From Candidatus Peribacteria bacterium (lineage in GTDB: Bacteria > Patescibacteriota > Gracilibacteria > Peribacterales > Peribacteraceae), in the NCBI GenBank assembly GCA_009691305.1, contig SICS01000002.1, positions 1 through 45,038 on the forward strand: a DNA stretch of 45,038 nucleotides. The letters run 5' to 3'. Positions within the stretch are counted from its first letter, which is position 1. Each line of letters starts with the position of its first letter. This document shows positions 6,065-44,908 of this stretch, one piece after another. The position numbers were made by a program, and so were the translations under genes. The notes below the pieces were generated by a model. The model did no database searches. It was not told the origin of the DNA and was given only the letters and a program-made list of their open reading frames with translations.

Positions 6065-6076
6065 AACTCGGCAGTT

Positions 6077-6125
6077 AGGAGCGCGCGTTCGGCGCGCGTG
6101 ATCACGCAGGCCGAACGCCTGCTCC
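6077..6125 (+). repeat. 49-bp nested palindromic element, copy 1
   Basis: AGGAGCGCGCGTTCGGCGCGCGTGATCACGCAGGCCGAACGCCTGCTCC. Identical to 8340-8388. Outer arms GGAGC..GCGTTCGGC / GCCGAACGC..GCTCC surround the perfect palindrome GCGTGATCACGC. Confidence 0.85.
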
Positions 6126-6216
6126 CAATTTCTGCTGTATCAAGGGCACTCCGACGCTGGACAACCTTTCACTTTCTGGTCTTAATCGCTGCGATCCCTG
6201 CTACCATGCGCGCCGC

Positions 6217-8329: not shown

Positions 8330-8339
8330 TAGAGCAATC

Positions 8340-8388
8340 AGGAGCGCGCGTTCGGCGCGCGTGATCACGCAGGCCGAACGCCTGCTCC
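8340..8388 (+). repeat. 49-bp nested palindromic element, copy 2
   Basis: 49/49 identical to 6077-6125, same orientation. Sits between the small ORF and the MBOAT gene. Confidence 0.85.
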
Positions 8389-8434
8389 TAAGCAATAGTT
8401 TGATATACTTCAGCTCTCGTGTTCGCACGGCCCT

Positions 8435-12337: not shown

Positions 12338-13951
12338 ATGCCGCCATACATCTCAGGCATACTTCCAGCCATGACCATGAAGTCTCTGCGGCGCGACCGC
12401 TGGAAGGCCATTCCCCTCTTCGCGGTTTTTCTTGTTGTCGGGTTGTTGCTGTATGGCCATGGGCTCACAAACGCCTTCGTCACGCTGGATGACGATATGC
12501 TGATCACGCTCAACACGGTCGTCCACGAGCTCTCCCCCCACTCCATCGCACGCGCTTTTACGATGTACGACCCCGAGCTGTACATCCCGCTCACCCTCGT
12601 CGCCTATCAAATCTTGTACCACTTCTTCGGGTTGCTGCCCGAGGCGTATCACCTACTCAGTCTCCTCCTCCACGTTGCCAACGCGCTGTTGGTATTCCTT
12701 TTCATCCGCGAACTCTCGGGCCGGCGTGGGGTGGCACTGATGACTGCGCTGCTTTTCCTGGTGCATCCTCTTCATGTGGAAGCCGTGATGTGGGCCTCTG
12801 CGATCAAGGATGTGCTGTCCTCGTTTTTCCTCTTACTGTCGCTGTTTTTCTACATGCGCTTCCTCCGGAAAGGGTCGAAAAAATATCTCCGCTGGAGCAT
12901 GGAGGCGTTTGGTGTGGGGTTACTCTGCAAAGTCTCGATCATCATCCTGCCCATCCTCTTGCTGTTGATTGATGTACGGGAGAAGCGCCGTATCGGGGAG
13001 AAAAACCTGCAAGAGAAACTCCCCTACTTCGTCCTCGCGGTCGTCTTCGGCTTTATCGCGGTCGTCGGAAAACTCAGTGCTGTGTCGCAGATGAACATGT
13101 CCGATCTGGTCCTCGTGAGCGCGAAGGCGACGCTCTTCCAACTCACCAGCCTTGTCTGGCCCACGGATCTCTCCGTCCTCTATCCGTACCATGGCCCCAT
13201 CAGCCTCAGCTCCCCTCCCTTCCTCGTACCAGTGATTTTCTGCTTCGCACTGGGCTCTTTGGCGGTTGTACTCCGGAAGAAAATGCCGAATGTGCTCTTC
13301 TGTACGGGCTTTTTCGTCCTCGCGCTTTTCCCGAGCTTCTTCAACTATGCGAAGGTTGATATCTACATCACGTCCGACCGGTACGCGTACATCCCGTCGA
13401 TTGGCTTCTTCTTTCTCGCAGTGTCCGTCGCGTCCATCATCCTAAACCGACTGCACGTGTCGCACAGCGCCCGTCCCCTCCTCTCATTCATCCCCCTTTT
13501 CCTTCTTTCGGCAGTCACATTCGTTCAGGTCGAGGTGTGGAGGAACAGCGAGACGCTCTTCTCACACGCGATCCAGGTCTCTCCGCAAAGTTTCCTCGCA
13601 TACAACAATCGCGGCACGAATCGGCTGTTTGAAGGCCGCATTGATGGCGCGTTGGAGGACTTCAAGAAGGCCCTCCAGATCAACCCGGGCCACCGCGTCA
13701 TTTGGTCGAACCTCGGCGATGCGTACTTGAAGAAGCTGATGCTGCCAGAAGCAGAATCTGCCTATCGGGAAGCACTCAAAATCGAGCCGAACACCGTCGA
13801 AGCGCACGTCGGCCTCGGCAATATGTACAAGCACCTCGGACGCAAAGAAGATTCGTTAGCCGAGTACGGAATCGCGCTCTCCATCGATCAGGCCTACGTG
13901 ATCAAGAGGTTGAGTGAGGCGATCGAGCGTCAAAACGGCAGGGCTCCATGA
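12338..13951 (+). CDS. polytopic membrane protein with C-terminal TPR repeats (GT-C / PMT-TMTC-like glycosyltransferase candidate)
   Basis: About 10 predicted TM segments. First-loop acidic motif FVTLDDDMLI as in GT-C enzymes. C-terminal TPR repeats (AYNNRGTNRLFEGRIDGALEDFKKALQINPG, WSNLGDAYLKKLMLPEAESAYREALKIEPN, HVGLGNMYKHLGRKEDSLAEYGIALSID). Confidence 0.7.
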   Translation: MPPYISGILPAMTMKSLRRDRWKAIPLFAVFLVVGLLLYGHGLTNAFVTLDDDMLITLNTVVHELSPHSIARAFTMYDPELYIPLTLVAYQILYHFFGLLPEAYHLLSLLLHVANALLVFLFIRELSGRRGVALMTALLFLVHPLHVEAVMWASAIKDVLSSFFLLLSLFFYMRFLRKGSKKYLRWSMEAFGVGLLCKVSIIILPILLLLIDVREKRRIGEKNLQEKLPYFVLAVVFGFIAVVGKLSAVSQMNMSDLVLVSAKATLFQLTSLVWPTDLSVLYPYHGPISLSSPPFLVPVIFCFALGSLAVVLRKKMPNVLFCTGFFVLALFPSFFNYAKVDIYITSDRYAYIPSIGFFFLAVSVASIILNRLHVSHSARPLLSFIPLFLLSAVTFVQVEVWRNSETLFSHAIQVSPQSFLAYNNRGTNRLFEGRIDGALEDFKKALQINPGHRVIWSNLGDAYLKKLMLPEAESAYREALKIEPNTVEAHVGLGNMYKHLGRKEDSLAEYGIALSIDQAYVIKRLSEAIERQNGRAP

Positions 13952-14038
13952 TGGACGTCTGGAGGGTTTCATGGAGGCCTCCAAGATGTCTTGCGATGGA
14001 CTCCACCTTTGGTTGTGGAGGCCTTCACGGAGGCCTCC

Positions 14039-14692
14039 ATGGAGGATATGGTGGAGGCTATGACAGTCCCCTACCTCACAATCAGTGAAGCAGCAGAGAA
14101 GACAAGACGCTCCGAGAGCACGGTACGGAGGGTCATCCACAGTATCGCCAAAGAAAAACATCCCGATCGCGGATTATTGCAGCCGAGCATCGGTGAGGTG
14201 AAGGAGTTCAAGAAGAAAGGGGAAAACTTCACGTGGAAGATTGCCGAGGAAGTCCTGCTCCGGAATTTGCAGCGAGTCCAGGAGCAAGAGAAAAAAAAGA
14301 CCACTCCATTCTCTTCCAACGTCGACGTTGAAATCCTTGCCATGTTGAAGCACGAGCTGGAGCAGAAGAGTAAGCACATCGAAAAGCAGTGGGAGGTGAT
14401 CGCCTCCTTGAATGAGCGGTTGCGCGAAGGGAACATCCTGATGGGTACGTTGCAGAAGCGCCTGGCGATTCCGGAGGCCTCCACGCCGTCGGAATCGGTC
14501 CTGGAGGCCGTCACCCTGAAGCCCTCCCCGCCTGACCGGCGGGCAGGCGCGGAGGCCTCCGTGAAGCCCCCCAAGAAGGCCTCCAAAATGCCCTCCACTG
14601 GAGCCTCCAAGAAGGCCTCCATGGAGGCCTCCACGCACACGTCATCCAGCAAGAAGAAGAGGGGATTCTTCGCTTGGTTTAGCGGAAATTAG
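14039..14692 (+). CDS. hypothetical HTH (excisionase/MerR-like) plus coiled-coil protein with EAS/KKAS repeat tail
   Basis: YLTISEAAEKTRRSESTVRRVIHSI resembles an HTH_17-type motif. Central coiled-coil-like segment and Lys/Ser/Ala repeat tail. Start uncertain (TTG 13991, ATG 14039, 14048 or 14060). Confidence 0.55.
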   Translation: MEDMVEAMTVPYLTISEAAEKTRRSESTVRRVIHSIAKEKHPDRGLLQPSIGEVKEFKKKGENFTWKIAEEVLLRNLQRVQEQEKKKTTPFSSNVDVEILAMLKHELEQKSKHIEKQWEVIASLNERLREGNILMGTLQKRLAIPEASTPSESVLEAVTLKPSPPDRRAGAEASVKPPKKASKMPSTGASKKASMEASTHTSSSKKKRGFFAWFSGN

Positions 14693-18270: not shown

Positions 18271-18284
18271 AACCGGATTGCGGA

Positions 18285-18686
18285 TTACGAATTTCGGAAG
18301 CTTGGTCGGGCAGAAAGATATCGAATAAAGCCGCCAATCATACGCCCCAGTTTTTCTGTCAGCTCCTTGAGCTTTCGGAATGTTTCTTGATCAATGTATT
18401 GCTCATCTAGCGCATCATAAAGTTGTGCACGAACTTCGCCCGCAGATCGTTTTGCATATCCGAGAAATTGAATGAATTCAGGGTTTGTTTGTGCTTCAGC
18501 ACCTTCAGCTACGTTGTACATAATAGATCGTGCAGCACGTGTGATTTGATCAATGAATGTAAAATCTTTACGCACGTTTGGATGCCTGCAGATGGAACGC
18601 ACTTCGCGTACCAACAGCCTGGCTTCTTGCCAAATTTCCATGTCCTCGAACTTGTGAGAAGGCGTCATGAGCCCATTGTGAAGCAT
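18285..18686 (-). CDS. four-helix-bundle protein (23S rRNA intervening-sequence protein family, TIGR02436/PF05635; Avd-like)
   Basis: FEDMEIWQEARLLVREV ... QITRAARSIMYNVAEGAEAQTNPEFIQFLGYAKRSAGEVRAQLYDA matches the family pattern. The last codons (RPSFRNS) are encoded by the heptamer array. Alternative start at ATG 18668. Confidence 0.85.
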   Translation of the reverse strand: MLHNGLMTPSHKFEDMEIWQEARLLVREVRSICRHPNVRKDFTFIDQITRAARSIMYNVAEGAEAQTNPEFIQFLGYAKRSAGEVRAQLYDALDEQYIDQETFRKLKELTEKLGRMIGGFIRYLSARPSFRNS

Positions 18687-18764
18687 GAAATTTCATTGAA
18701 TAGTCTCTTAAAAAAGATTCTTGTCCGTGTGCCATATTCTTGGCTATCTGATGTGGTAAATTCA

Positions 18765-18786
18765 GTTCCACTACCCTGTGGAACAT
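18765..18786. promoter_or_regulatory. GTTCCAC-N6-GTGGAAC palindrome upstream of 4HB gene 1
   Basis: GTTCCACTACCCTGTGGAACAT, about 80 nt upstream of the 4HB start. Related 22-mers occur at 34899-34920 and 39199-39220. Confidence 0.55.
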
Positions 18787-18830
18787 CCCGCAATCCGCCA
18801 TCCGAAATCCGCAATCCGCAATTATTCCTT

Positions 18831-27587: not shown

Positions 27588-27614
27588 GCCCCTCTCGAAA
27601 GAGAGGGGCTTTTT
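27588..27614 (+). terminator. rho-independent terminator of the S-layer gene
   Basis: GCCCCTCTC-GAAA-GAGAGGGGC followed by TTTTT. Confidence 0.8.
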
Positions 27615-27616
27615 GG

Positions 27617-27716
27617 TATCTCGATACGTTCGTGGCTCCGCCACGAACTACTCGATATGACAGGTGCTGTCATCCCGAGTAGCCCGCAGCGGAGCTGCGG
27701 GCGTAACGAGGGATCA
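27617..27716. repeat. REP-like elements, inverted doublet (copies 2 and 3; REPIN-like)
   Basis: Reverse copy at 27617-27662 and forward copy at 27668-27716 (TGTCATCCCGAGTAGC-CCGCAGC-GGA-GCTGCGG-GCGTAACGAGGGATCA), head to head. The FemAB-type gene stop (TCA 27714-27716 on plus) lies in the last 3 nt of the forward copy. Confidence 0.75.
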
Positions 27717-28712
27717 TCCCAGGAGTTTTCTCTTCATTCGAAGCAGAGTTTTTGTGACGGGACGCAGAATGATTTCCTGCTCCGGGGGATACGTGATGAC
27801 CGAGCCGCCGAACTTGGCTTTGAATTCGCTGACGCTGGCCCAGGGGTGTTTTTTTAGTGGAGACGGCGACGTCTCCGCTTGGGGGGCGATGCCGAACAGG
27901 TCGTAGGAGGTGCAGCCGTGGGATCGGCAATACTTTATGGCTTCCCACTGCAGTAAATACGGAGCCATGAGCTCCCTGTGGGCGTTGGAGGAGGCGCCAT
28001 AGTAATACGTGGCCTGCGTGCCCCAGACGACGCCCAGGAGCCCTGCCACATGCGTCTTTTGGGCGGTCATGGCCAGCATCAGGAAGCTGCCGGGCAAACC
28101 CCTCAGGAAGTGCTCGTAGAAGGCTGCCTTGTGGCCGCGGAAGCTGTCCCTGCGTGCCGTCTCTTCTCCTAGGCGGGCATAGGCCTCGGTGTCATCCGAT
28201 TGCTCGACATCGATACCATGTTTTTCGGCCAGCCGGATGTTATAGCGGCCCTTGGGTTTCATTTGGGCGAGCAGTGCCTCATCATTCAGTGTTAGATCAA
28301 GAATCCGAGTCGCTTCAGGCATGACGAATCGGCCTGAGTTGCGAATTTCGGATTTCGGATTTCGGAAAGGTAGATGTGGTGAAAAATGAATAGTGAGAGC
28401 GCCATTCTCTTTTGCATCTGCAATGATTCTTTCTATAAAATCCGTAATCCGTAATCCGTAATCCGTAATCATAAGCGGTCCGCGCGGTATCTCCCACGTA
28501 CTCAGTCCAAGACTCGTCCTATCAATCACCACGAGAGCGGAGGCCATGATCTGCTCAGCATCCATCTGCGCATAAATCCGCACCTCGCGCTGAAGAGCTT
28601 TCTGAAATTGGCTCCATTCCAGCGACTGCCACAATGAACCTTCGGGGTGCGTCTTGATCCACTGATCATAGGCATGCAAATCCTCCGGCGATGTAAGGCA
28701 ACGAATATCCAT
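27714..28712 (-). CDS. FemAB-family peptidoglycan interpeptide-bridge (aminoacyl-tRNA-dependent) transferase
   Basis: [81 protein letters not shown] are family hallmarks. Confidence 0.85.
28342..28470. repeat. inverted CGGATTN heptamer arrays inside the FemAB-type coding sequence, read through in frame
   Basis: Plus strand CGAATTT-CGGATTT-CGGATTT-CGGAAAG (28342-28369). Minus strand CGGATTA x3 plus CGGATTT (28438-28465). Translated as [11 protein letters not shown] and [10 protein letters not shown] in the track protein. Confidence 0.8.
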
Positions 28713-31032: not shown

Positions 31033-31086
31033 TTCTTGAAAAATGAAACAGAGCCGAAGTATAGACAGTCACGCTCGCGTGTAAAG

Positions 31087-31193
31087 TCCCTCGTTACGAA
31101 ATCTGCTCCGCAGCTTTCTACTCGGGATGACATTTCGACTTGAATGTCATTCCGAGTAGCTCGCGGGGGATCCGCGAGCGTAACGAGGAATCA
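31087..31193. repeat. REP-like elements, inverted doublet (copies 4 and 5; REPIN-like)
   Basis: Reverse copy at 31087-31132 and forward copy at 31145-31193 (TGTCATTCCGAGTAGC-TCGCGGG-GGA-TCCGCGA-GCGTAACGAGGAATCA). The stop of the DHS-like gene (31191-31193) is the terminal TCA of the forward copy. Confidence 0.75.
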
Positions 31194-32367: not shown

Positions 32368-33231
32368 ATGTCCAAAAAAGTCACTATCGGCCTCGTACAG
32401 ATGTCCATGGAACATCATCCAGCCGGTAATCTGGAGTATGCCATCGAGATGGTCGCCAAAGCGGCGGACAAAGGCGCGCAGATCGTGTGTCTGCCTGAGC
32501 TCTTCCAGAGCCCGTACTTCTGCCAGAAGAAGGATGACAAAAGCGCATTCGATCTCGCAGAGCCAATCCCCGGCCCTGCAACTAAAGCGCTTTCCGAAGC
32601 GGCAAAGAAGCACAAGATCGTCCTCGTCGGTGGATCGATCTTCGAGAAGACAAAAGAGGGGACGTACTACAACACCACGCCGGTCTTCGATACCGACGGC
32701 TCGCTCCTCGGAACCTATAGGAAGACGCATATTCCCGAAGACATCCTCTATCACGAAAAACAGTACTTCAGTCCCGGCGATACCGGCATCAAGGTCTTCA
32801 AAACGAAATATGGGAAGATCTGCCCGCTGATCTGCTATGACCAGTGGTTTCCGGAAGCCGCGCGCCTCGCCACGCTCCAGGGTGCCGAGATCCTCATTTA
32901 CCCCACCGCGATCGGTGTCATCGATTCCGCAGTCGAAGAGAACATCACGGGAGACTGGGAGCAGATGTGGCGGAACGTGATGCTCGGGCATGCGGCGGCG
33001 AACAACGTCTACGTGTGCGGCCTCAATCGGGTGGGCACCGAAGGCGCCATCACCTTCTGGGGCGGCTCCTTTATAGCGGCGCCGAGCAGCGAGGTCCTCG
33101 CGAAGGCGGGTAATAAGGAGGAGATCATCCTGGCGGTATGTGATCTTGACCGGGTGAAGGCGATACAGGAGGCTTGGATGTTTTTGAAGAATAGGAGACC
33201 GGAGGTTTATGACGGACTTACGAAGCACTAA
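32368..33231 (+). CDS. aguB: N-carbamoylputrescine amidase (carbon-nitrogen hydrolase family)
   Basis: Nitrilase-superfamily Glu/Lys/Cys blocks (IVCLPELF, YRKTHIP, ICYDQWFPE). Adjacent to agmatine deiminase. Confidence 0.85.
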   Translation: MSKKVTIGLVQMSMEHHPAGNLEYAIEMVAKAADKGAQIVCLPELFQSPYFCQKKDDKSAFDLAEPIPGPATKALSEAAKKHKIVLVGGSIFEKTKEGTYYNTTPVFDTDGSLLGTYRKTHIPEDILYHEKQYFSPGDTGIKVFKTKYGKICPLICYDQWFPEAARLATLQGAEILIYPTAIGVIDSAVEENITGDWEQMWRNVMLGHAAANNVYVCGLNRVGTEGAITFWGGSFIAAPSSEVLAKAGNKEEIILAVCDLDRVKAIQEAWMFLKNRRPEVYDGLTKH

Positions 33232-33316
33232 GCACTAAACTCTAAGCCCTAAACAATATCTCAATTCCCAATGAAAAAAATTGTTTAGGATTTAGTACTT
33301 AGGATTTAGAATTTCG
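33221..33316. repeat. gene-less hairpin made of inverted heptamer arrays (CTAANNN units)
   Basis: Left arm CGAAGCA-CTAAGCA-CTAAACT-CTAAGCC-CTAAACA (33221-33255), 26-nt loop. Right arm on minus CGAAATT-CTAAATC-CTAAGTA-CTAAATC-CTAAACA (33282-33316). The aguB stop lies in the left arm. Confidence 0.8.
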
Positions 33317-33323
33317 CCTGACT

Positions 33324-34391
33324 ATGCCATCTTCACTCCAGCATCATCTCCGAATGCCAGCTGAATGGGAGCCCCACGCAGGCACCATCCTTACGTGGCC
33401 GCATAACGAGCGGCACTTTCCCGGCCTCTTCGACCAGGTTCCCGCCATTTGGGCGCGAATGATCAAAGAACTCGAAGTCGGCGAAGATGTGCATGTGATC
33501 ATCCACGATGAGGAGGCAGAGAAGTCCGCGAAAGCCGAGATGAAGAAGCTAAAGGTTCAGGGTGATCGGGTTCATCTCCATCGCATCCCGAATAACTTCG
33601 CGTGGGCGCGCGATCACGGGCCGATTGTCGTCAAAAACCGCGCGGGGGAACGCCTCTTCCTCGATTGGGGCTACAACGCGTGGGGCGGCCAATGGGAGTT
33701 TGCGCTTGATGATGCTGTGCCGACGCTCCTCGCGAAGGATCTCGGTCAACCGTCAGTCACACTGCCGATGATCCTCGAAGGCGGATCCATCGATGTGAAC
33801 GGACAGGGGACTCTCCTCACGACGGAAAACTGTCTCCTGAATCCCAACCGCAATCCGGGGCTCACCAAAGCGCAAATCGAGCAGCAACTGAAGGACAATC
33901 TCGGCGTTACGAATGTCCTCTGGCTCGGGGAGGGGATTATGGGCGATGACACGAGCGGACATGTGGACGACCTCACGCGGTTCGTGGATCCATGCACCGT
34001 CGTCACGATCATTCATGAGAATCCTGATGATCCTGATTACGAGCCGCTGCAGGAAAATCTGCGCCGATTGCAGACGATGAAAGATCAAGATGGTCAGGCA
34101 CTGGAGATCATCACCATCACGCAGCCGAAGCCCGTCCTCGTTCACGAACACAAACCGAGTAGCATGGCGGTCGTGCCGGACGAAGGCTTCCGCATTCCGG
34201 CGAGTTACGCCAACTTCTACATCGGCAACGAGTGTGTGCTGTTACCGGTCTGGGATGATCCGCAGGATGCGGCCGCGATCAAGACTCTACAGAAATGTTT
34301 TCCGAACCGTCGAATTGTGCCTATCGATAGTCGTGTGTTGACGTGGGGGTGGGGGTCGTTTCATTGTGCGACACAACAAATCCCCAAGTAG
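33324..34391 (+). CDS. aguA: agmatine deiminase
   Basis: MPAEWEPHAGTILTWPH N-terminus and C-terminal GSFHCATQQIP with the catalytic Cys, typical of the PAD_porph/agmatine deiminase family. Confidence 0.92.
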   Translation: MPSSLQHHLRMPAEWEPHAGTILTWPHNERHFPGLFDQVPAIWARMIKELEVGEDVHVIIHDEEAEKSAKAEMKKLKVQGDRVHLHRIPNNFAWARDHGPIVVKNRAGERLFLDWGYNAWGGQWEFALDDAVPTLLAKDLGQPSVTLPMILEGGSIDVNGQGTLLTTENCLLNPNRNPGLTKAQIEQQLKDNLGVTNVLWLGEGIMGDDTSGHVDDLTRFVDPCTVVTIIHENPDDPDYEPLQENLRRLQTMKDQDGQALEIITITQPKPVLVHEHKPSSMAVVPDEGFRIPASYANFYIGNECVLLPVWDDPQDAAAIKTLQKCFPNRRIVPIDSRVLTWGWGSFHCATQQIPK

Positions 34392-34420
34392 GGAAAAGAA
34401 ACCGGAAACCAGAAGCCAGG

Positions 34421-34801
34421 TTAGGTGAGGGGTTGAGGTTGAGGTGTGTAGTATTTTTGGATGATGGAATGGAAAATAAGTTTCAAACTTCGAGCTTCTT
34501 TCAGGAGCGATAGTCGCTCTTGCTCAAGAGCTGGTTCAAGTCTCATATCAAACATGTCTAACCAGAACATGGATTCCTTTGCCTCCTTCCGGGAAATTTT
34601 CAGATGGTATGCACAATCTTTCTTTGTGAACGCTTCGTTGGCCTCAATATAGTTAGCACCGACAGAACCTGATGATCGAAGGAGCTGTTTTGCGTCATCA
34701 GAGTAGGCAAGTTGCTTCGGCAATTGATGGAGCCACCGGCGGATGTTTTTGCCAAAGTCAGCAGTCCTTTCGGCCAGATCCTGTCTTTCAGCATTCGTCA
34801 T
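34421..34801 (-). CDS. four-helix-bundle protein (23S rRNA intervening-sequence protein family; Avd-like)
   Basis: QLLRSSGSVGANYIEANEAFTKKDCAYHLKISRKEAKESMFWLDMF matches the family pattern. The C-terminal TPQPQPLT is encoded by the flanking repeat array. Confidence 0.8.
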   Translation of the reverse strand: MTNAERQDLAERTADFGKNIRRWLHQLPKQLAYSDDAKQLLRSSGSVGANYIEANEAFTKKDCAYHLKISRKEAKESMFWLDMFDMRLEPALEQERLSLLKEARSLKLIFHSIIQKYYTPQPQPLT

Positions 34802-34898
34802 GCCATTACCATATGTGACTTACAGATGGCGGAAACGCAGTTAGAAATAGAAAAAATGATCGTGCCTAACTTTTTATCTAATGTAAGCCAAAAAATCA

Positions 34899-34920
34899 GT
34901 TCCACACCCCCATGGAACAT
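34899..34920. promoter_or_regulatory. palindrome GTTCCACACCCCCATGGAACAT upstream of 4HB gene 2
   Basis: Identical 22-mer at 39199-39220. About 100 nt upstream of the 4HB start. The adjacent block 34869-34890 is 19/22 identical (inverted) to 39228-39249. Confidence 0.6.
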
Positions 34921-34997
34921 ACCCCATACCTTGTACTTTACCCGGCTTCTAAGACCTGGATTCTCGTACCTTTTGCCGATTCTCGTCACAAATTCAT

Positions 34998-35025
34998 TTG
35001 ACCTCCACCCGGATCTCTTTACAAT
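34998..35025 (+). promoter_or_regulatory. candidate sigma-70 promoter for rpoB (TTGACC-N16-TACAAT)
   Basis: TTGACC at 34998-35003 and TACAAT at 35020-35025, about 110 nt upstream of the rpoB ORF. Confidence 0.4.
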
Positions 35026-35135
35026 CTCCCCGTTATCTCGCAGTGGCTTCGATTGTGTTGTGAGTGCTGCGTCCCGGTTCTGTCATGCGTCGTCATGCGA
35101 CGGTGCGTGGCCACTCCTTTTTCCCTCCTTATTGT

Positions 35136-38100
35136 ATGGCGAAGAAAGCGAAGAAGTCCCTCAAAAAATCCAAGCCCGCAAAAGCGGTGAAGAAGGTTGT
35201 CAAAAAGGTCGCCCCCAAAAAGGTAGTGCCGAAGGCCGCCATCAAGGCTGCAGCCCCCGCCGCACGGCCAGGATCGAAATTTCAATTAAAAAAAGGAGGG
35301 GGAAAGCCGGTGGAGCAGCAGGACATCCTGAGGCCGCTCAAGAAGTTGAACGTCCCGAAGAAGCCCTACCAGATGCATGTAGATGAAGAGGTGGTGCCGC
35401 ATGTGCACCCGCACGTGATTCCGCCCGCGGGACGCACGCCTGCGGTCTTCGCGCGGTTGCCGGACTTGCCACAGCCCAAGAAAATTGAAATGGGGCGCGT
35501 GTTGTTGGTTGAACAAGACGATCACTCGCACGTGCCATCACTCATTGAAATGCAGATCCTCAGCTACAAGTGGTTCCTGACCGAAGGCCTCAAGGAACTA
35601 CTGGAAGAGATCACGCCGATCACGGACTTCTCGGGCAAAAAGCTCGAGCTCCGCATCCTCGGCCACACCTTCGACGTTCCCAAGTACGACCCCGAGACCT
35701 GCAAGCGCCGCAACCTCAGCTACGAAGGTGCCATGAAGGGTTACGTCCAGCTGATCAACCGCGAAACGGGTGAAATCAAGGAGCAGGACGTATTCCTAGG
35801 CTCCATCCCGCTGATGACCGATTCCGGCACATTCGTCGTGGACGGCATCGAGCGCGTGGTCGTCCACCAATTGGTCCGCTCCCCGGGCGTGTTCTTTAGC
35901 AAGATGCCCGACCACCCCAAGTACCATGCCGCCAAGATCATCCCGAAGCGCGGCGTGTGGCTGGAAATCGAGACGGACCGCCGCGGCATCATCAGCTGCA
36001 AGATCGACCGCAAGCGCAAGATCCCCATCACGCAGCTGCTCCGCGTCTTCGGCTACGCCGGCGATGGCCAGATCCTCGACCTCTTTAAGGACATCACGAA
36101 CCCCGACCACGATTACATCCTCACGACCCTCGAGAAAGATCCGGTCCGCACGGTCGAAGAGGCGTACCAGAGCGTCTACCGCAAGATCCGCCCCGGTGAC
36201 CTTGCGACGCCCGAAAACGCCAAGCAGCTGATCGATTCCCTCTTCTTCGACTTCAAGAAGTACGACATGGGCTCCATCGCCCGCTACAAACTGAACCGCC
36301 GCTTCAACCTCAAGACGCCAAGCGACGAAGCACACCGCGTCTTCCAGGTCAGCGACTTCCTTGAGATCCTCCGCGAACTCGTCCGCCTCAACAACGGCGT
36401 CGGTGTGGCCGATGATATCGACCACCTCAGCAATCGCCGCGTCCGCTCCGTCGGCGAACTTGTGCAGAACAAGTATCGCGTGGGCCTCGTCCGCACCGAG
36501 CGCATTGTCAAGGATCGCATGACCGTGATGGACATCGAGACCGTCACCCCCACCCAGCTCATCAACTGTCGCCCGATCACGGCCGCGATGCGCGAATTCT
36601 TCGCGAGTTCGCAGCTCTCTCAGTTCATGGACCAGACGAACCCGCTGGCCGAACTCGCCCACAAGCGCCGCCTCTCGGCGATGGGTCCCGGAGGACTCTC
36701 CCGCGAGCGCGCGAGCTTCGACGTCCGCGACGTGCACACCAGCCACTACGGCCGTATCTGTCCGATCGCGACTCCTGAAGGTCCGAACATCGGTCTCGTC
36801 GTCCACTTGGCAGGGTTTGCCCGCGTGAACGAATACGGATTTCTCGAGACCCCGTATCGCGAGGTGAAACACACGATTCCGCTCGATCCCGACAGGCTTC
36901 TCGGCCGCATCCTGGACGTCACAGTAAAGGAGAGCCGCAAGGTGGTCGCCAAGGAAGGTGAGGTGATCGATAAGAAGGATTTGGCACGCAAAATCGTCTC
37001 GATCCTCAAGAAGGAAGGCGCCAAGGACATCGCCGTGCGCGCCTACATCACGAGCAAAGTCATCTACGTCGACGCCGAGCAGGAGCGCCACCTCACGATC
37101 GCCCAGGCTGAAACGCACACCAGCGAGTTCGACGAATTCATGACGACCCGCGTTTCCTCCCGCAAAGCAGGGGAGCCGCTGCTCGCCCATGTCCGCGACA
37201 TCACGCACGTCGACGTTTCGCCCCGCCAGATCCTCTCGATTTCCACCTCTCTCATCCCATTCCTGGAGCACGATGACAACACCCGCGCATCCATGGGCAC
37301 GAACATGCAACGCCAAGCCGTCCCGCTGATCAAGCCGCACTCGCCGCTCGTCGGCACCGGTATCGAAGGCCTCGCCGCCCGCGCATCGGGCCACGCGCTC
37401 CTTGCCGAAGAGGACGGTGAAGTTACCGCCGTCGATTCGCGCGAAGTCTCCGTCGTCTACAGCTCGGGAAAGAAGCGCACCCACAAGCTCCACACATTCG
37501 TTCGCAGCAACCAGGGCACGTGTTTCCACATGCGTCCTCGCGTGTTGCGCGGCCAGAAAGTCCGCCGTGGCGAACCGCTCGCTGATGGCGCGTCTGTTGA
37601 GGACGGCGAATTGGCACTCGGGCAGAACCTACTTGTCGCCTACATGTCGTGGGAAGGCTACAACTTCGAAGATGCTGTCATCATCAGCGACCGCGTCGTG
37701 GAGGAAGGGTTCTTCGACTCCGTCCATATCGAGTCCTACATCACAGACGTGCGCGATACCAAACTCGGACCAGAAATCGTCACGCGCGACATCCCGAACG
37801 TCGGCGAAGCAAAACTCAAGGATCTCGGCACCGACGGTGTCGTCCGCATTGGTGCGACCGTCCACGAAGGCGACATCCTGGTCGGCAAGATCACGCCGAA
37901 AGGGGAGACCGAACTCACCCCTGAGGAACGCCTTCTGCAAGCCATCTTCGGCGACAAGGCGAAGGATGTGAAAGATTCGTCCCTGCGTCTCCCCGGCGGT
38001 GCTGGCGGAAAGGTGGTCGACGTCCACATCTTCGACCGCGCGGAGGGCGACGAACTGCCTACGGGCGTCATCAAGCAGATCAAAGTCTTCGTCGCACAGA

Positions 38101-39075: not shown

Positions 39076-39190
39076 TACCCCCTCCCCCAGCCCCTCCCCC
39101 TGAGGGGAGAGGGGAGTTGGGGTATCTCCACAATTCAACAAGCCCCTTTCTCCCGCGCACGGGGGAAAGGGGTTGGGGATAGGGGGTTTT
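39076..39190. repeat. CCCCNNN / GGGGNNN heptamer-type hairpins after rpoB
   Basis: TACCCCCTCCCCCAGCCCCTCCCCCTGAGGGGAGAGGGGAGTTGGGGTA (39076-39123) and CCCCTTTCTCCCGCGCACGGGGGAAAGGGGTTGGGGATAGGGGG (39143-39186). May also act as the rpoB terminator. Confidence 0.6.
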
Positions 39191-39196
39191 GAGTGG

Positions 39197-39260
39197 ATGT
39201 TCCACACCCCCATGGAACATCCGAACGTGGCTTACATAAGAGTAAAAGTCTCCATCTCAA
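39197..39260 (+). promoter_or_regulatory. cassette-type palindrome plus conserved leader block, oriented toward ssb
   Basis: ATGTTCCACACCCCCATGGAACAT (39197-39220) followed by TGGCTTACATAAGAGTAAAAGT (39228-39249). Both match the region upstream of 4HB gene 2. Confidence 0.55.
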
Positions 39261-39333
39261 AAAGTGATCTTCTCCGACCCCCCTCCCGCGATCAGCCGGG
39301 ACTTTTTACGATGATCGACCGCTCTTTCTCCTC

Positions 39334-39981: not shown

Positions 39982-40305
39982 TCATTGCGTCTCTCCATCT
40001 ACCGTCCCCTCAGAGTTCAATAATTCCTCAAGTGCGTTTCTGCATTGATTTGTTAGACCTATGCCAGCGAGAGGATCCTTGTAGAGATCCTCTATGGATA
40101 TCTTTTTTCTTTCCGCGACGTATTGTGCGTGCAGCGCCTCGGCAGTATTCCTCCTTGTGTCATTAAGAGGTAATGCGTCTGCCTTCGTGAGGAGGGCCGC
40201 AATTTTTGCGTGGTCTTCTCGAGACTTGGCATTAATCTCACGCAAAAGCCTGACTTCTGCCGCAAGCTCTTGCTCAGGCCGTATTTTTGGAGAAATCTCA
40301 GTCAT
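39982..40305 (-). CDS. hypothetical protein (107 aa, AT-richer)
   Basis: Clean ORF with helical, charged composition. TTGACA-type -35 and AT-rich -10-like sequence close to the ATG on the minus strand. No family recognised. Confidence 0.4.
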   Translation of the reverse strand: MTEISPKIRPEQELAAEVRLLREINAKSREDHAKIAALLTKADALPLNDTRRNTAEALHAQYVAERKKISIEDLYKDPLAGIGLTNQCRNALEELLNSEGTVDGETQ

Positions 40306-40724: not shown

Positions 40725-41385
40725 TTTTTGAGAAATGTTACTCATCGCAACACATGGATGCCTCGACTCTGCATTCCGATGAAGGACGTGGCCAGCAACG
40801 ATATGCTTCGGTGAGCCGCTAGGCAGGCGTTACCAGCCGAAGATTTCCGAATGGGGAAACCCCACGAGAGTTCTGTCTCGTGATCCGCTCACGCGGAAGG
40901 TCACTCTGTGAACTGAAACATCTCAGTAACAGAGGAAAAGAAATTAAATTAAAGATTCCCCCAGTAGTGGCGAGCGAACAGGGATCAGCCCAAACCGCGT
41001 ACTTGTACGCGGGGTTGTAGGACCTCGATATGTGATTCCTTCCTTTATAGAAGAACGTCCCTGGAACGGGCGGCCATAGAGGGTGATAGCCCCGTAAGCG
41101 AAATAGAGGAAGACACTAGAGGAATCCTGAGTAGGGTCGGACACGTGAAATCCGGCCTGAATCCGGGTGGACCACCATCCAAGGCTAAACAGATGCAGAG
41201 ATCAATAGCGGATAGTACCGTGAGGGAAAGGTGAAAAGCACCCCGGAAGGGGGATGAAATAGTCTCTGAAATGTGTTGCGTCCAAGGAGTCGGAGCGGAC
41301 TTGTTCCGTCACGACGTTCCTTTTGCATAATGAGCCAACGAGTGTGTTCTCAGTGGCGTGGCTAAGGCAGTTTCCTAGCCGGAGC

Positions 41386-41417
<32 letters not shown>

Positions 41418-41812
41418 TCGCTGGGACACGACCCGAAACCGGGTGAGCTATCCATGAGCAGGTTGAAGCCCGCCGAAAGGCAGGTGGAGGACCGAACCAT
41501 AGCGTATCGCAAGACGTTGGGATGACTTGTGGATAGGAGTGAAAAGCTAATCGAACCCGGAGATAGCTGGTTCTCCTCGAAATGCCTTTAGGGGCAGCCT
41601 CGTCGGGCACGGCGGGGGGTAGAGCGACTGTTTGGATGCGGGAGTCACCTCGACTTACCAAATCCTGACAAACTCCGAATACCCGCCTTTAATGCCGACG
41701 GGAGTGAGACAGTGGCAGCGAATTGCCATTGTCGTAAGGGAAAGAGCCCTTACCATTCGCTAAGGTCCCAAATTATCGTTCAGTGGGAAAGGTGGTGTAT
41801 GTGCATCAACAA

Positions 41813-41843
<31 letters not shown>

Positions 41844-42177
41844 TAAAGAAAGCGTAACAGCTCACTGGTCGACGCACGTATGCGCCGAAAACTCAACGGG
41901 GCTAAACGATAAACCGAAGCGGTGGATCTCCTATGTCCTTCGGGACGTAGGTGGTGGTAGAGGAGCGTTCCGTTCAGCTGTGAAGCAGTGTTGTGAAGCA
42001 TTGTGGAGCGTACGGAAGCGAGACTGTTGGCATGAGTAACTACTAGGCAGGTGAAAACCCTGCCCGCCGAATCCCCAAGGTTTCCCACGCAACGGCAATC
42101 GGCGTGGGGTTAGTCGGTCCTAAGGTCAGGCCGAAAGGCGTAGCCGATGGATAACAGGTCAATATTCCTGTACTTCT

Positions 42178-42345
42178 CGGGAATCGATAAAAGGGCGGTC
42201 GTTGAGAGTTTTACGAGCCTCTGTCTCTACCATTTTGTACATATACATAGACGCAGGTCTTCGACCTGCGGATCGCGCGTCGAAGACGCGCGCTATGTGT
42301 CCAAGATGGTAGAGATATGTTCGCGAAAAAGGATACTTCCGTTCT
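42178..42345 (+). other. ~150-nt insertion / expansion segment in 23S domain III
   Basis: Between CCTGTAC and GTGACGGGATGGGAAG, E. coli and Bacillus have about 25-30 nt and this gene has about 175 nt. It contains stem 42224-42233/42306-42315 enclosing two hairpins (GCAGGTC-TTCG-GACCTGC and GCGCGTC-GAA-GACGCGC). Confidence 0.6.
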
Positions 42346-42801
42346 AGGAGCGGTGTGACGGGATGGGAAGATCGCAGCGTGCGCATTGACTGCACGTGTA
42401 ACACGTAAGACGTTGAGAGTGGTAGGGAAATCCGCCACTTGAGTCGAGCGTGGAATCCAAATGGCTCCCGCGAGGGGGTCGAGTGCGTACCTTTCCGTCT
42501 CCAAGAAAACCATCGCTCACAGAGTTCCGGGAAACCGTACCGCAAACCAACACCGGTGGGGTGGTCGAGTAGACCAAGGCGAACGGGAAAACTCGCGTTA
42601 AGGAACTCGGCAATGAAGCGTCCGTAACTTCGGGATAAGGACTACCAGTCTGTAGTGGATTGGTTGCAACAAAAGAGGTCAGGCGACTGTTTATCAAAAT
42701 CACAGGTCCCTGCTAAGCTGCAAAGCAATGTATAGGGGCTGATGCCTGCCCAGTGTCAGAAGGTCACGTAAGGGGGTTTACGCCTCCGAACTAAGCCCTG
42801 A

Positions 42802-42855
<54 letters not shown>

Positions 42856-43044
42856 GGTCGAATAACCCCGTACCAGTCGCGCTTCGGCGCTCCGGTACAG
42901 GGCATGCTTGCCCGAATGATCAGCAATGATCAGCACTGAGGAATTTTTTCTAGATTTTGATAGTAAGTCTCGCGGTCGAGACCCGCGATGCCCCAAGCGA
43001 AAGCAAAGGGCGATCTCATAATTATTTTTTTGTTGGCGCCGAGC

Positions 43045-43062
43045 GCAGGCATACTTGCCTGC
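43045..43062. repeat. GCAGGCA-TACT-TGCCTGC hairpin inside the intron
   Basis: Exact reverse complement of 5044-5061. Confidence 0.6.
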
Positions 43063-43494
43063 AAAGAGTTAAGGAATCTCTCTAAAAATTCTGATTACAG
43101 ACCGTATTGTGGATACCATTCACCCCACGTCGCTCGCTTCGGCGAGCTATGCGGGGCAAACAGTGTAAAACGTCGCCATATGCTGGAACATCCGAGTATC
43201 CCCTATGCCGTAAGGTACGGGGTGCGGACAATCAGCAGGAAAGAATTTCTTATTTTTCTTCCATTCATTATGACACGTACCAAAGAATCTCCGGCTCTCG
43301 ACGACAAGCAATTGCCGAAGGGAGTAGATGGATACAATCTCGCCTTGATTGAAGCGGCACCTGCTGCCATTTGGCAGTTAGGTTTTGCAGAGATATGCGG
43401 GAATTACCGTCAGGAAATTCAGGAGTGCGGTGCATTCAGTGAATCGGATAATAAGAACTGATCCTCAGAGACTTTACGCGATGCCCGCGACTTG

Positions 43495-43540
43495 TTCCTC
43501 GTTACGCTCGTGACTCTGTCACGAGCTACTCGGAATGACA
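43495..43540 (-). repeat. REP-like element copy 6, in the P8 loop of the intron
   Basis: Minus strand reads TGTCATTCCGAGTAGC-TCGTGAC-AGA-GTCACGA-GCGTAACGAGGAA. Flanked directly by the P8 stem CCGCGAC/GTCGCGG. Confidence 0.75.
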
Positions 43541-43621
43541 GTCGCGGAGATGATAAAGTCCGATCCCTGTGGCGACACAGGGCGCGCGAAATTGAAGCGC
43601 GGCTAAAAAACAATCGTTATG

Positions 43622-43667
43622 TCCCTCGATACGAAAATCGCTCGGCGATTTTCTACTCGGGATGACA
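43622..43667 (-). repeat. REP-like element copy 7, in the 3' peripheral region of the intron
   Basis: Minus strand reads TGTCATCCCGAGTAG-AAAATCGC-CGA-GCGATTTT-CGTATCGAGGGA. Confidence 0.7.
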
Positions 43668-43725
43668 TAGGTGTAAGTGCGCTCCTGCAAGGGAGATCTC
43701 GGTTCACCACCGAGAGGAACGCGCT

Positions 43726-43790
43726 GAATTGAAAATTGATAATTGAAAATGGGAAATTATTTTCCATTTACCATTTTTCATTTTTCATTC
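43726..43790. repeat. AT-rich inverted heptamer-array hairpin near the intron 3' end
   Basis: AATTGAA-AATTGAT-AATTGAA-AATGGGA-AATTATT facing, on the minus strand, AATGAAA-AATGAAA-AATGGTA-AATGGAA. Confidence 0.7.
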
Positions 43791-44361
43791 GCATGTTTAT
43801 GAAGTTCCGACCCGCACGAATGGTATAACGGTCTGATCACTGTCTCGACGCGAGGTCCGGTGAAATTTCAATCCTGGTGCAAATGCCAGGTAGACCACGG
43901 TAGGACGAAAAGACCCTATGAAGCTTTACTGTACGCTGACATTGTTTCGTTGATTTGCGTGCGCAGAATAGGTGGGAGGCTTTGAGGCTCTAGCTTCGGT
44001 TAGGGCGGAGCCAACTTTGAGATACCACCCTCGCGTTTCGCCGAAACTCACCCTGTCTCTGAAACAGAGCGGGGGACAGTGTTTGCCGGGCAGTTTAACT
44101 GGGGCGGTTGCCTCCTAAAGTGTAACGGAGGCGCGCAAAGGTCCACTAGCGCCGGATGGAAATCGGCGTTGTCGTGTAATCGCACAAGTGGGCCTGACTG
44201 TGAGACTTACAGGTCGAGCAGGGACGAAAGTCGGTGATAGTGATCCGGCAGCCGGACAACTTATACTTGTCCTTACCACGTGGGTGGGCTGTCGCTCAAC
44301 GGATAAAAGTTACTCTAGGGATAACAGGCTGATCGGTTCCAAGCGCCCACAGCGACGAACC

Positions 44362-44478
<117 letters not shown>

Positions 44479-44518
44479 TGGCCTCTATCCTCCGTGGTCA
44501 CTTAGAAACGTGAAGAAA

Positions 44519-44551
<33 letters not shown>

Positions 44552-44609
44552 AACCTCTGGTGTACCTGTTGTCGCGTCAGCGGCATTGCAGGGTAGCTAT
44601 GTTTGGACG

Positions 44610-44642
<33 letters not shown>

Positions 44643-44785
44643 CCTTCTGAGATTGCGTTTCTCCATCAGCCCGCCGGAAGACGACCGGCTAGATCGGCCA
44701 CAGATGTACGTGCGGCAACGCATTCAGTCGAGTGGTACGAACGGGCAATTGAACATTTTTCAACCTTAGCCTTTAACAGCTAGGG

Positions 44786-44830: not shown

Positions 44831-44878
44831 TGTCACCCCGAGTAGCTCGTGACGGAGTCACGAGCGTAACGAGGGGCA
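44831..44878 (+). repeat. REP-like element copy 8, in the 23S-5S spacer
   Basis: TGTCACCCCGAGTAGC-TCGTGAC-GGA-GTCACGA-GCGTAACGAGGGGCA. The stem is nearly identical to that of copy 6 but in the opposite orientation. Confidence 0.75.
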
Positions 44879-44908
44879 ATAATTGATTCTTCAAATCATG
44901 AGTGCAGT

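Follow-up and report, generated by a model that had tools for sequence, protein, structure and literature searches.

The 45,038-nt stretch of DNA analysed here (hereafter, the window) comprises positions 1 to 45,038 of contig SICS01000002.1 from a Candidatus Peribacteria bacterium of the family Peribacteraceae (assembly GCA_009691305.1), and the element under study occupies the interval between aguA, which ends at position 34391, and rpoB. The best-matching named relatives of aguA come from Candidatus Peribacteraceae and Peribacteria, which belong to the Peregrinibacteria of the candidate phyla radiation. A single small gene lies between aguA and rpoB, antisense to both neighbours, and, together with its flanks, fills the interval with almost no spacer to the gene ends. 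This unit is referred to as c2, two further copies in the window as c1 and c3, and loci in other assemblies or contigs used for comparison are given L-numbers. That c2 belongs to a family of single-gene cassettes in this genome is well supported, as is the plan of the cassette, which in gene orientation consists of a 5' heptamer-like arm, a 7-bp hairpin with a T-rich tract, a leader of ~90-100 nt, an open reading frame (ORF) of the family PF05635 and a 3' arm that mirrors the 5' arm as its inverse complement and extends into the final codons of the gene. An earlier note, made from the sequence of this DNA alone, had described an AT-richer unit between aguA and rpoB, and the GC content of the region (0.46-0.47 over 34401-35200, versus ~0.57 nearby) agrees with that description.

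The identity of c2 as a genuine four-helix-bundle gene of PF05635/TIGR02436, of the S23p type, is secure. Its product matched both PF05635 (23S_rRNA_IVP; E=1.4e-10, 41.8 bits, cut-off 33.8) and TIGR02436 ('four helix bundle protein'; 56.5 bits, cut-off 24) and retains all residues that are invariant in 25 subfamily homologues. An AlphaFold (AF2) model built from that 25-homologue alignment showed four long helices (pLDDT 95.6), and the top Foldseek matches were the S23p-type structures 2RLD (TM 0.77/0.86, E 2e-5) and Xcc0516/2GSC (TM 0.75/0.82), with a weaker match to Avd, a protein of diversity-generating retroelements (DGRs; 4DWL, TM 0.58/0.65, E 0.07). Sequence searches gave a similar picture, with 2RLD found by phmmer at 1.2e-7 and 2GSC also reached, while Avd was not reached at E<=1 by a profile search. 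The four-helix-bundle gene read from the letters by the earlier note is therefore borne out, and the comparison with Avd and S23p structures that it proposed comes down on the side of S23p. The same note had assigned the last eight residues, TPQPQPLT, to a repeat array; these residues are indeed encoded by the repeat block ACACCTCAACCTCAACCCCTCACC (34424-34447), and homologues of c2 stop ~10 residues earlier, before this extension. No PADLOC defence model matched. With its reading frame intact, c2 probably still codes for its protein, presumably a pentamer.

The c1 protein scored 107.8 bits against PF05635 and 105.6 bits against TIGR02436, both above the curated cut-offs, yet shares only ~18% identity with the c2 protein, and the two fall into separate PF05635 subfamilies. 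Orthologues of c1 occur in three other assemblies (proteins 82-88% identical), in all cases downstream of a class I fructose-bisphosphate aldolase gene and convergent with yidC. The order of elements in the three relatives is aldolase stop, 5' array, hairpin, leader, gene, 3' array and yidC stop, with 4 to 7 units of ATTGCGG/ATTACGG in the 5' array of the c1 orthologues. Judged by its occupation of one site across four assemblies, c1 is an old and well-kept cassette. The third copy, c3, has no four-helix-bundle gene; its hairpin and leader (39195-39275) lie after rpoB and are followed by two terminator-like hairpins and then ssb, and it is read as a remnant that has lost its gene.

The distribution of c2 itself is narrower. 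In relatives, no four-helix-bundle gene was found beside aguA or upstream of rpoB, but there a large gene separates aguA and rpoB and the neighbourhood is not collinear, so that the absence of c2 does not provide a clean empty site. The only other assembly with c2 is a Logan contig (L001, from SRR8561390), which is identical to the window over 3636 nt; its positions 1-87 diverge completely from the corresponding part of the window (35072-35158, in the 5' region of rpoB), which may reflect a strain difference or a branch in the assembly graph. With an intact gene between degenerate arms, c2 is a resident, old and partly decayed member of the family and not a recent insertion.

A shared hairpin and leader upstream of the cassette genes

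The upstream strings that the earlier note had quoted as alignable were located at 34877-34920 (minus strand) in c2 and 18745-18786 (minus strand) in c1, and their similarity exceeded shuffled controls. Smith-Waterman alignment of the two upstream regions scored 35, versus 16.7 +/- 2.2 in 500 dinucleotide shuffles (maximum 27; z=8.2). In addition, a covariance model trained on four c1 orthologues only, with c2 excluded, and run over the entire window with filters off, recovered c2 at 34849-34922 (minus strand) with 50.2 bits and E=4.5e-10. The homologous hairpin and leader of c1 and c2 span ~75 nt. Local alignment of the c2 and c3 upstream regions scored 29 (z 5.6), with 22 hairpin bases and 20/22 leader bases identical, and c3 gave a weak signal in the c1-only model. 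Three copies of the palindrome GTTCCA-N8-TGGAAC are present in the window (18765-18784 in c1, 34899-34918 in c2 and 39199-39218 in c3), versus 0.22 in shuffled sequence.

Searches for further copies of this module returned none. Searched with a covariance model, 165 kb (window plus loci) yielded nothing besides the training sequences; three copies were found in the 45 kb window and none in 120 kb of related loci. The pattern ATGTTCCA-N8-TGGAAC-N10-15-ACATNAGA gave one hit in GTDB genomes and seven in JGI metagenomes, but by inspection these matches lie in apparently unrelated coding sequence and were treated as chance. A search of both cassettes against Rfam at a permissive threshold yielded nothing credible.

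Across the stretch from hairpin to ATG, the 7-bp hairpin is the only conserved structure detected by RNAalifold (folding term ~ -10 kcal/mol). Its arms read GTTCCAC / GTGGAAC in the c1 copy of the window, GTTCTAC / GTAGAAC in L021, GTTCCAT / ATGGAAC in L022, and GTTCCAT / GTGGAAC in both L023 and the c2 copy of the window. These differences amount to compensatory C-G to U-A changes at two stem pairs (one in L021, one in L022) plus two U-G wobbles (L023 and c2). RNAalifold scored three of its eight predicted pairs as compensatory, the third being the loop-closing pair outside the 7-bp stem. A T-rich tract lies 3' of the stem in five of the six copies, and the hairpins of c2, L021 and L022 passed a simple terminator scan, whereas those of c1, L023 and c3 did not. 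Read from their leaders, the loops of the c2 and c3 hairpins are inverted with respect to each other: the plus strand reads GTTCCACACCCCCATGGAAC in both, with the leaders on opposite sides. The leader of L022, although L022 is a c1 orthologue, is nearer to those of c2 and c3 (ATGGCTTCACTGAGAGAAAAAG versus TGGCTTACATTAGATAAAAAG), which suggests that leaders have been exchanged between cassettes.

Neither the c1-orthologue leaders nor the c2 leader contains a Shine-Dalgarno sequence, and no conserved sigma-70, sigma-54, extracytoplasmic function (ECF) or Bacteroidetes-type promoter was recognised when the leaders were read by eye. The only recurring promoter-like element is a -10-like hexamer that ends 6 nt before the ATG in c1 orthologues (TCACAAT, TCAAAAT, TCAGACT) and in c2 (TATGGT); because of this spacing, a leaderless transcript from the cassette is possible. 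For a module in which no sigma-70 promoter is predicted and the hairpin is the sole conserved structure, the role of control region given to it by the earlier note is putative.

Heptamer arrays around PF05635 genes

The arms of c1 are clearly complementary (91% over a 22-nt core, with 0/2000 shuffles as good; duplex -46.9 kcal/mol, z -6.4), and its 3' arm overlaps the stop codon and the last five sense codons (18285-18300). The left arm of c2 has two parts. The outer part, GAAACCG/GAAACCA/GAAGCCA (34397-34419), was reported by Tandem Repeats Finder (TRF) with period 7, 3.3 copies and 81% matches and lies beyond the stop codon; the inner part, GGTTAGG/TGAGGGG/TTGAGGT/TGAGGTG, overlaps the final nine codons, and there TRF reported the coding block 34431-34445 with period 6 (GGTTGA x2.5). 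The tandem 7-mers that the earlier note saw at the 3' end of the gene are thus borne out by TRF in the GAAACCG series, which follows the stop, but not in the coding block. Its further statement that the opposite flank is an imperfect inverse of the array survives in a weak sense only: local alignment of 34392-34455 against the reverse complement of 34919-35000 gave p ~0.07, whereas as RNA duplexes with G-U pairs allowed the flanks reached -45.3 and -41.5 kcal/mol (z -2.6 and -3.0). The first of these duplexes joins the entire 64-nt left flank to a 70-nt right flank through 46 pairs, and wider flanks gave -55.1 kcal/mol (z -4.1, from 40 shuffles only).

The heptamers of the two cassettes are unlike, being of the CGGATTG type in c1 and of the GAAACCG and GGTTGAG types in c2. 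The outer TTCTCGT units of the c2 right arm adjoin the -35 box of rpoB. In the relative L020, a gene-less heptamer hairpin (GAAAACGAGG...CCTCGTTTTC) occupies the matching position, and part of the c2 outer arm may therefore predate the cassette as a feature of this site. Taken together, the low protein identity, the different heptamers, the homologous upstream module, the age of c1 and the existence of c3 bear out the earlier proposal of a family of related elements, as opposed to one recent duplication.

Heptamer arrays are the commonest class of tandem repeat in the window, with nine period-7 TRF rows versus a mean of 0.97 (maximum 3) in 30 dinucleotide shuffles. Seven of the nine rows belong to clear inverted pairs; the single row of c2 has a marginal partner, and that at 39102-39116 forms part of the array hairpin of c3. 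Among the pairs obtained from TRF and the inverted-repeat scan, both PF05635 genes of the window are enclosed by arrays and no other whole gene is. The gene-less array hairpin that separates the CN-hydrolase gene from aguA is conserved in position (L016 9860-9960, L020 9888-9960), and in L020 it is built from a different heptamer (ATGAATC) with the arms still complementary; in L018 the two genes overlap and there is no hairpin. A further pair (ATTACGG x4 and CCGAAAT x3) lies within a FemAB-family ORF, around a native 72-nt helix-strand segment that aligns to FemX. Orthologues of this gene (L016 4569-5546; L020 3793-4815) carry arrays at the same two places, made of other units (GTGGAAA; TTGAGAA/TTGAAAA) that are again complementary.

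Bracketing by arrays extends well beyond this lineage. Assessed by eye and by duplex energy, 14 of 16 distinct PF05635 loci from the candidate phyla radiation (CPR), Bacteroidota and cyanobacteria have arrays on both flanks; of the remaining two, one has a 5' array only, because the next gene overlaps, and one has none. Arm z values range from -3 to -10.8 at L002, L006, L021, L022, L025-L028 and L030. The bracketed loci from outside the lineage comprise three metagenome loci, a marine Peribacteraceae gene, Riemerella, two Nostoc plasmids, Calothrix and Picosynechococcus. For example, an array-armed four-helix-bundle gene separates cas10 from cmr3 in a type III-B CRISPR module on a Picosynechococcus plasmid (L028, 395-751), and another lies antisense between two ribonucleotide reductase subunit genes on a Nostoc plasmid (L030, 392-760). 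The marine Peribacteraceae gene lies between ftsH and purB, and P0267 was found in an FtsH/purB context in 24/24 contigs read. At loci homologous to c1 or c2, the 5' array ends ~10-15 nt before the ATG, and the beginning of the 3' array coincides with the final codons or falls within them. None of these loci has the hairpin and leader, and the module is therefore specific to the c1/c2/c3 lineage.

Inverted arrays of CACAAAA-like units also enclose a gene of a different family, PDDEXK_3 (GxxExxY-type; L006, 1046-1640), which is likewise a family reported from rRNA intervening sequences. In the search of plasmids by tblastn, the c1-type protein matched 13 records, six of which were examined, and the c2-type protein had no match; PF05635 profile searches of viral contigs gave nothing that was confirmed.

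Heptamer arrays also occur in the 23S rRNA gene of the window. The 23S rRNA gene (40731-44762) measures 4032 nt, versus 2925 for the model, and a 5S gene is also present. All but ~150 of the extra bases are accounted for by an insertion of ~950 nt (about 42852-43805) after CTTGTCGGGT, near E. coli position 1931, which contains a 157-aa ORF with no Pfam match and ends in a heptamer-array hairpin; a whole-window scan at the Rfam gathering threshold gave no group I intron match to it. Two of the eight copies of a second repeat family, with the palindromic form CTCGTTACG-hairpin-CTACTCGGGATGACA and sometimes arranged head-to-head, lie inside the same insertion. Elsewhere, the segment 39814-40348 holds a 107-aa ORF (39982-40305, minus strand; no Pfam, NCBIfam or PADLOC match) between 26-nt inverted repeats (CGTGGCTTTTTTACATTCATGAAAAT / ATTTTTATGAATGTCAATTATTCACG, 77% complementary), the left of which overlaps the ssb terminator. 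A 58-nt G+C-rich palindromic sequence is present in two copies, 95% identical and 2.3 kb apart (6071-6128 and 8334-8391). A 233-aa ORF with a weak helix-turn-helix match (13943-14650) has GGAGGCCTCC in 12-nt repeats at both ends; its inverted GGAGGCCTCC repeats were considered as an array cassette and rejected, the motif being self-complementary and within coding sequence.

Table 1 Positions of the cassettes, their parts and related features in the window.
Feature	Position	Strand	Remarks
c2 gene	34421..34801	-	126-aa PF05635/TIGR02436 (S23p, 23S rRNA intervening-sequence protein) four-helix-bundle protein
c2 leader	34802..34888	-	~87 nt, without Shine-Dalgarno sequence; holds conserved TGGCTTACATTAGATAAAAAG; TATGGT 6 nt before ATG
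c2 hairpin GTTCCAT-GGGGGT-GTGGAAC (34899-34918), then TGATTTTTTGG	34889..34918	-	passes simple terminator scan
c2 left arm (3' arm in gene orientation)	34392..34455		TRF, duplex energy
c2 right arm (5' arm in gene orientation), degenerate	34919..35000		imperfect complement of left arm
c1 gene	18285..18668	-	PF05635 protein, 127 aa from the ATG conserved in orthologues
c1 leader and hairpin GTTCCAC-AGGGTA-GTGGAAC (18765-18784)	18669..18786	-	alignment, covariance model
c1 3' arm CGGATTG/CGGATTA/CGAATTT (plus strand)	18271..18300		directly after yidC stop
c1 5' arm CCGCAAT x5 (plus strand)	18787..18825		5 nt after aldolase stop, TAA 18831-18833 (minus strand)
c3, gene-less copy	39076..39275	+	C-rich/G-rich array hairpin 39076-39190; hairpin 39195-39222; leader ~55-75 nt
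Gene-less inverted heptamer-array hairpin	33221..33316		spacer between CN-hydrolase gene and aguA
Inverted heptamer arrays in frame within FemAB-family ORF 27714-28712 (minus strand)	28339..28472		TRF, inverted-repeat scan
Gene-less heptamer-array hairpin	43715..43800		3' end of ~950-nt insertion in 23S rRNA gene
rpoB promoter TTGACC-16-TACAAT	34998..35025	+	context only, outside the cassette; conserved in relative L020
Second repeat family	231-279, 27611-27716, 31081-31193, 43489-43541, 43616-43668, 44831-44879

Proposed mechanism and alternatives

By analogy, c2 and its relatives may be the chromosomal counterpart of the S23p-bearing intervening sequence (IVS) of 23S rRNA, with arms that pair in RNA and a hairpin and leader that insulate the cassette and start its own transcript. 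Once transcribed, the arms would anneal into an extended imperfect duplex with the gene in its loop, as in the S23p-bearing IVS. This stem would be a likely substrate for RNase III, so that a transcript crossing the cassette on either strand would be cut at the base of the stem, and cutting there would free the insertion from the messages of its neighbours. The hairpin and its U-tract could stop read-through coming over the 5' arm, a form of insulation specific to this lineage, and the leader could give an independent start, possibly of a leaderless mRNA, from the -10-like CACAAT, CAAAAT or TATGGT 6 nt before the ATG. An arm made of tandem repeats would tolerate shifts of register in pairing, and slippage could rebuild complementarity; this construction would explain why the arms of orthologues retain their pairing despite differences in unit and copy number. 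We regard the reading as a whole as evenly balanced between being right and wrong.

Several observations weigh against it. The stem is short (7 bp), and the T tract behind it is lacking in c3 and weak in both c1 and L023. Promoter prediction gave no sigma-70-type promoter in any of the leaders, though the adjacent rpoB has a near-consensus one. At the DNA level the c2 arms are marginal (alignment score 18, with 134/2000 shuffles as good), and duplex energies show no consistent advantage of the sense strand, so that a role at the RNA level is not distinguished from one at the DNA level. An array pair also brackets the native coding segment of FemAB, and arrays are therefore not simply the ends of cassettes. 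Finally, if the internal hairpin were an efficient terminator, upstream sense transcripts would never contain both arms, and the stem would then form only on read-through or antisense RNA.

The least improbable alternative is that c2 is a mobile, non-autonomous cassette resembling a miniature inverted-repeat transposable element (MITE) or transposon, in which the arrays serve as terminal inverted repeats for a recombinase encoded elsewhere and the palindrome is a recombination site. An AT-richer unit fitted tightly between gene ends, the lack of a four-helix-bundle gene beside aguA or upstream of rpoB in relatives, related genes inside operons of other phyla (cas10/cmr3; ribonucleotide reductase subunit genes), the gene-less remnant c3 and the inverted hairpin loop of c2 versus c3 would all suit such an element, and the IVS itself was earlier proposed to be a remnant of transposition (PMC4990558). 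However, the arms of c1, c2, c3 and the gene-less hairpins differ within one genome, which is unexpected for a single transposase, and the conserved ends, target-site duplications and near-identical copies that characterise MITEs and transposons were not found: no duplication was visible at the c1 and c2 borders when inspected by eye, and identity between the proteins is 18%. The window ORFs that were scanned, a part of the total, included no transposase or integrase. Moreover, c1 is fixed at one site in four assemblies, P0267 keeps its FtsH/purB context in all contigs read, the aguA-rpoB region is non-collinear in relatives and so offers no clean empty site, and the module is confined to its three copies in 45 kb, with none in 120 kb of related loci. 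We consider mobility of this kind unlikely.

Somewhat less probable still is the view that nothing specific has to be explained, c2 being a small gene that happens to lie among slippage-prone intergenic heptamer repeats next to an ordinary terminator. Heptamers are reported to be the commonest intergenic tandem repeats of prokaryotes, with polymerase slippage as a proposed cause (PMC6344855, PMC4692102, PMC4679880); array copy number does vary among c1 orthologues, and the c2 arms are barely complementary as DNA. Against this view stand arrays in inverted, mutually complementary pairs in the window, heptamers that change between genomes at three orthologous positions while the arms still match, bracketing at 14/16 PF05635 loci from several phyla, and a hairpin and leader that remain conserved although the cassette proteins share only 18% identity.

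A similarly low probability attaches to the palindrome GTTCCA-N8-TGGAAC acting as a DNA operator that binds a dimeric regulator, perhaps the four-helix-bundle protein itself, and so controls the cassette genes and ssb, with the leader as the regulated promoter. The dyad symmetry, with half-sites of 6-7 bp and a fixed spacer of 6-8 bp in all copies, would fit a protein site, as would the symmetric changes in L021 and L022, the copy ~160 nt upstream of ssb and a loop that can be inverted without loss of the arms (c2 versus c3). In c2 and L023, by contrast, the half-sites are asymmetric at the inner position (T opposite G), which keeps RNA pairing and breaks DNA symmetry; the T-rich tract after the stem is terminator-like, two terminator-like hairpins separate the c3 copy from ssb, and no other gene of the window is preceded by a copy. 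We know of no DNA-binding activity of the PF05635 family that is specific to such a palindrome. A LexA box was rejected because the half-site order GTTC...GAAC reverses that of the Gram-positive LexA box, GAAC-N4-GTTC. Integron gene cassettes can be dismissed as well, since these are single cassettes between housekeeping genes, with no integrase among the ORFs scanned and attC-like strings (GTTAGGC/GTTAGGT) at about the chance rate (estimated at ~1 expected per 600 nt on both strands).

Each of these three explanations (mobile element, neutral repeats, operator) is weakened by the evidence above. A broader reading, which we hold to be improbable, would treat PF05635 (and PDDEXK_3) cassettes and gene-less inverted heptamer-array hairpins as two states of one bacteria-wide class of element, with intergenic heptamer repeats being largely their arms or footprints and with the arms written and homogenised on both sides by a mechanism of their own, which may depend on the four-helix-bundle protein, and not by slippage and selection alone. 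The concerted turnover of arms at fixed positions, including those in FemAB, and a GGGAATC array at the start of Xcc0516 are pointers in this direction, not proof.

Comparison with known systems

Among the closest known systems is the IVS of 23S rRNA. In Coxiella and Leptospira, the termini flanking an S23p ORF are complementary and pair into a stem that RNase III cleaves, the stem of the Coxiella burnetii IVS being 28 bp long, and older authors considered the IVS to be a transposition remnant or a mobile element (PMC4990558). ORFs of the 23S_rRNA_IVP family have also been reported in rRNA insertions of CPR bacteria (PMC11270868). Like the IVSs of Leptospira and of C. burnetii (helix 45), c2 is a single-gene unit of ~0.45-0.6 kb, AT-richer than its host, with a PF05635 ORF between termini that could form a long stem, those of c2 being only marginally complementary. 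An IVS is inserted in helix 25 or 45 of 23S rRNA and transcribed within the pre-rRNA, whereas c2 lies outside the rRNA genes, in the interval from aguA to rpoB and antisense to these two genes. Its arms consist of tandem heptamer-like units in place of a unique 28-bp repeat, and inside it are a hairpin followed by a T tract and a leader of ~90 nt. Processing by RNase III has been shown for the IVS and would be expected by analogy for c2.

The arms resemble the heptamer repeats that are reported to be the most abundant intergenic tandem repeats (PMC6344855), such as GGGAATC in Xanthomonas and GGGGA(C/T)T in Nostoc (Rehm et al. 2015, Mrazek 2007, Mori et al. 2019), which likewise are tandem 7-mers between genes and often form two nearby arrays on opposite strands; 70-75 convergent GGGAATC pairs were described in Xanthomonas (Rehm et al. 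2015, PMC4692102). In contrast to those repeats, the arrays described here are mostly not G-rich and their two arms bracket a gene. The heptamer-repeat papers treat arrays as candidates for G-quadruplexes or phase variation and draw no link to PF05635 genes, and a search of open-access full-text literature found no paper connecting the two, which is not proof of novelty. Array 15 (GGGAATC) in the supplementary table of Rehm et al. overlaps the start of XCC0516, a gene listed there as 'conserved' without mention of its family (PMC4692102). XCC0516 of Xanthomonas campestris is the S23p-type protein of structure 2GSC, which was matched by both c1 and c2.

c2 shares the four-helix-bundle fold and the Pfam family of Avd, the DGR accessory protein (PDB 4DWL), but its neighbours are aguA and rpoB and not a reverse transcriptase, and no long near-identical pair of direct repeats of the template/variable repeat (TR/VR) type was found in the window. 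As short intergenic inverted-repeat units that can fold as RNA hairpins, the cassettes also recall repetitive extragenic palindromes and bacterial interspersed mosaic elements (REP/BIME), MITEs and Rickettsia palindromic elements; these differ in that the copies studied here have no common consensus and their arms are tandem arrays, and no transposase, whether a REP-associated tyrosine transposase (RAYT) or of another type, turned up in the window ORFs that were scanned. Rickettsia palindromic elements lie in frame within protein-coding genes, as does the FemAB array pair, but the latter brackets a native segment and not an inserted block.

In summary, c2 represents an IVS-like cassette situated away from rRNA, with arms made of heptamer arrays and a hairpin and leader of its own. 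The PF05635 family is very large, with thousands of homologues returned per search and 'four helix bundle protein' a routine annotation, and the 23S rRNA IVS and DGRs are the only settings in which it has been studied. The loci examined here appear to connect PF05635 genes with otherwise unexplained heptamer repeats: since most of these genes lie between inverted heptamer arrays, the rRNA IVS would seem to be a special case of a more general cassette.

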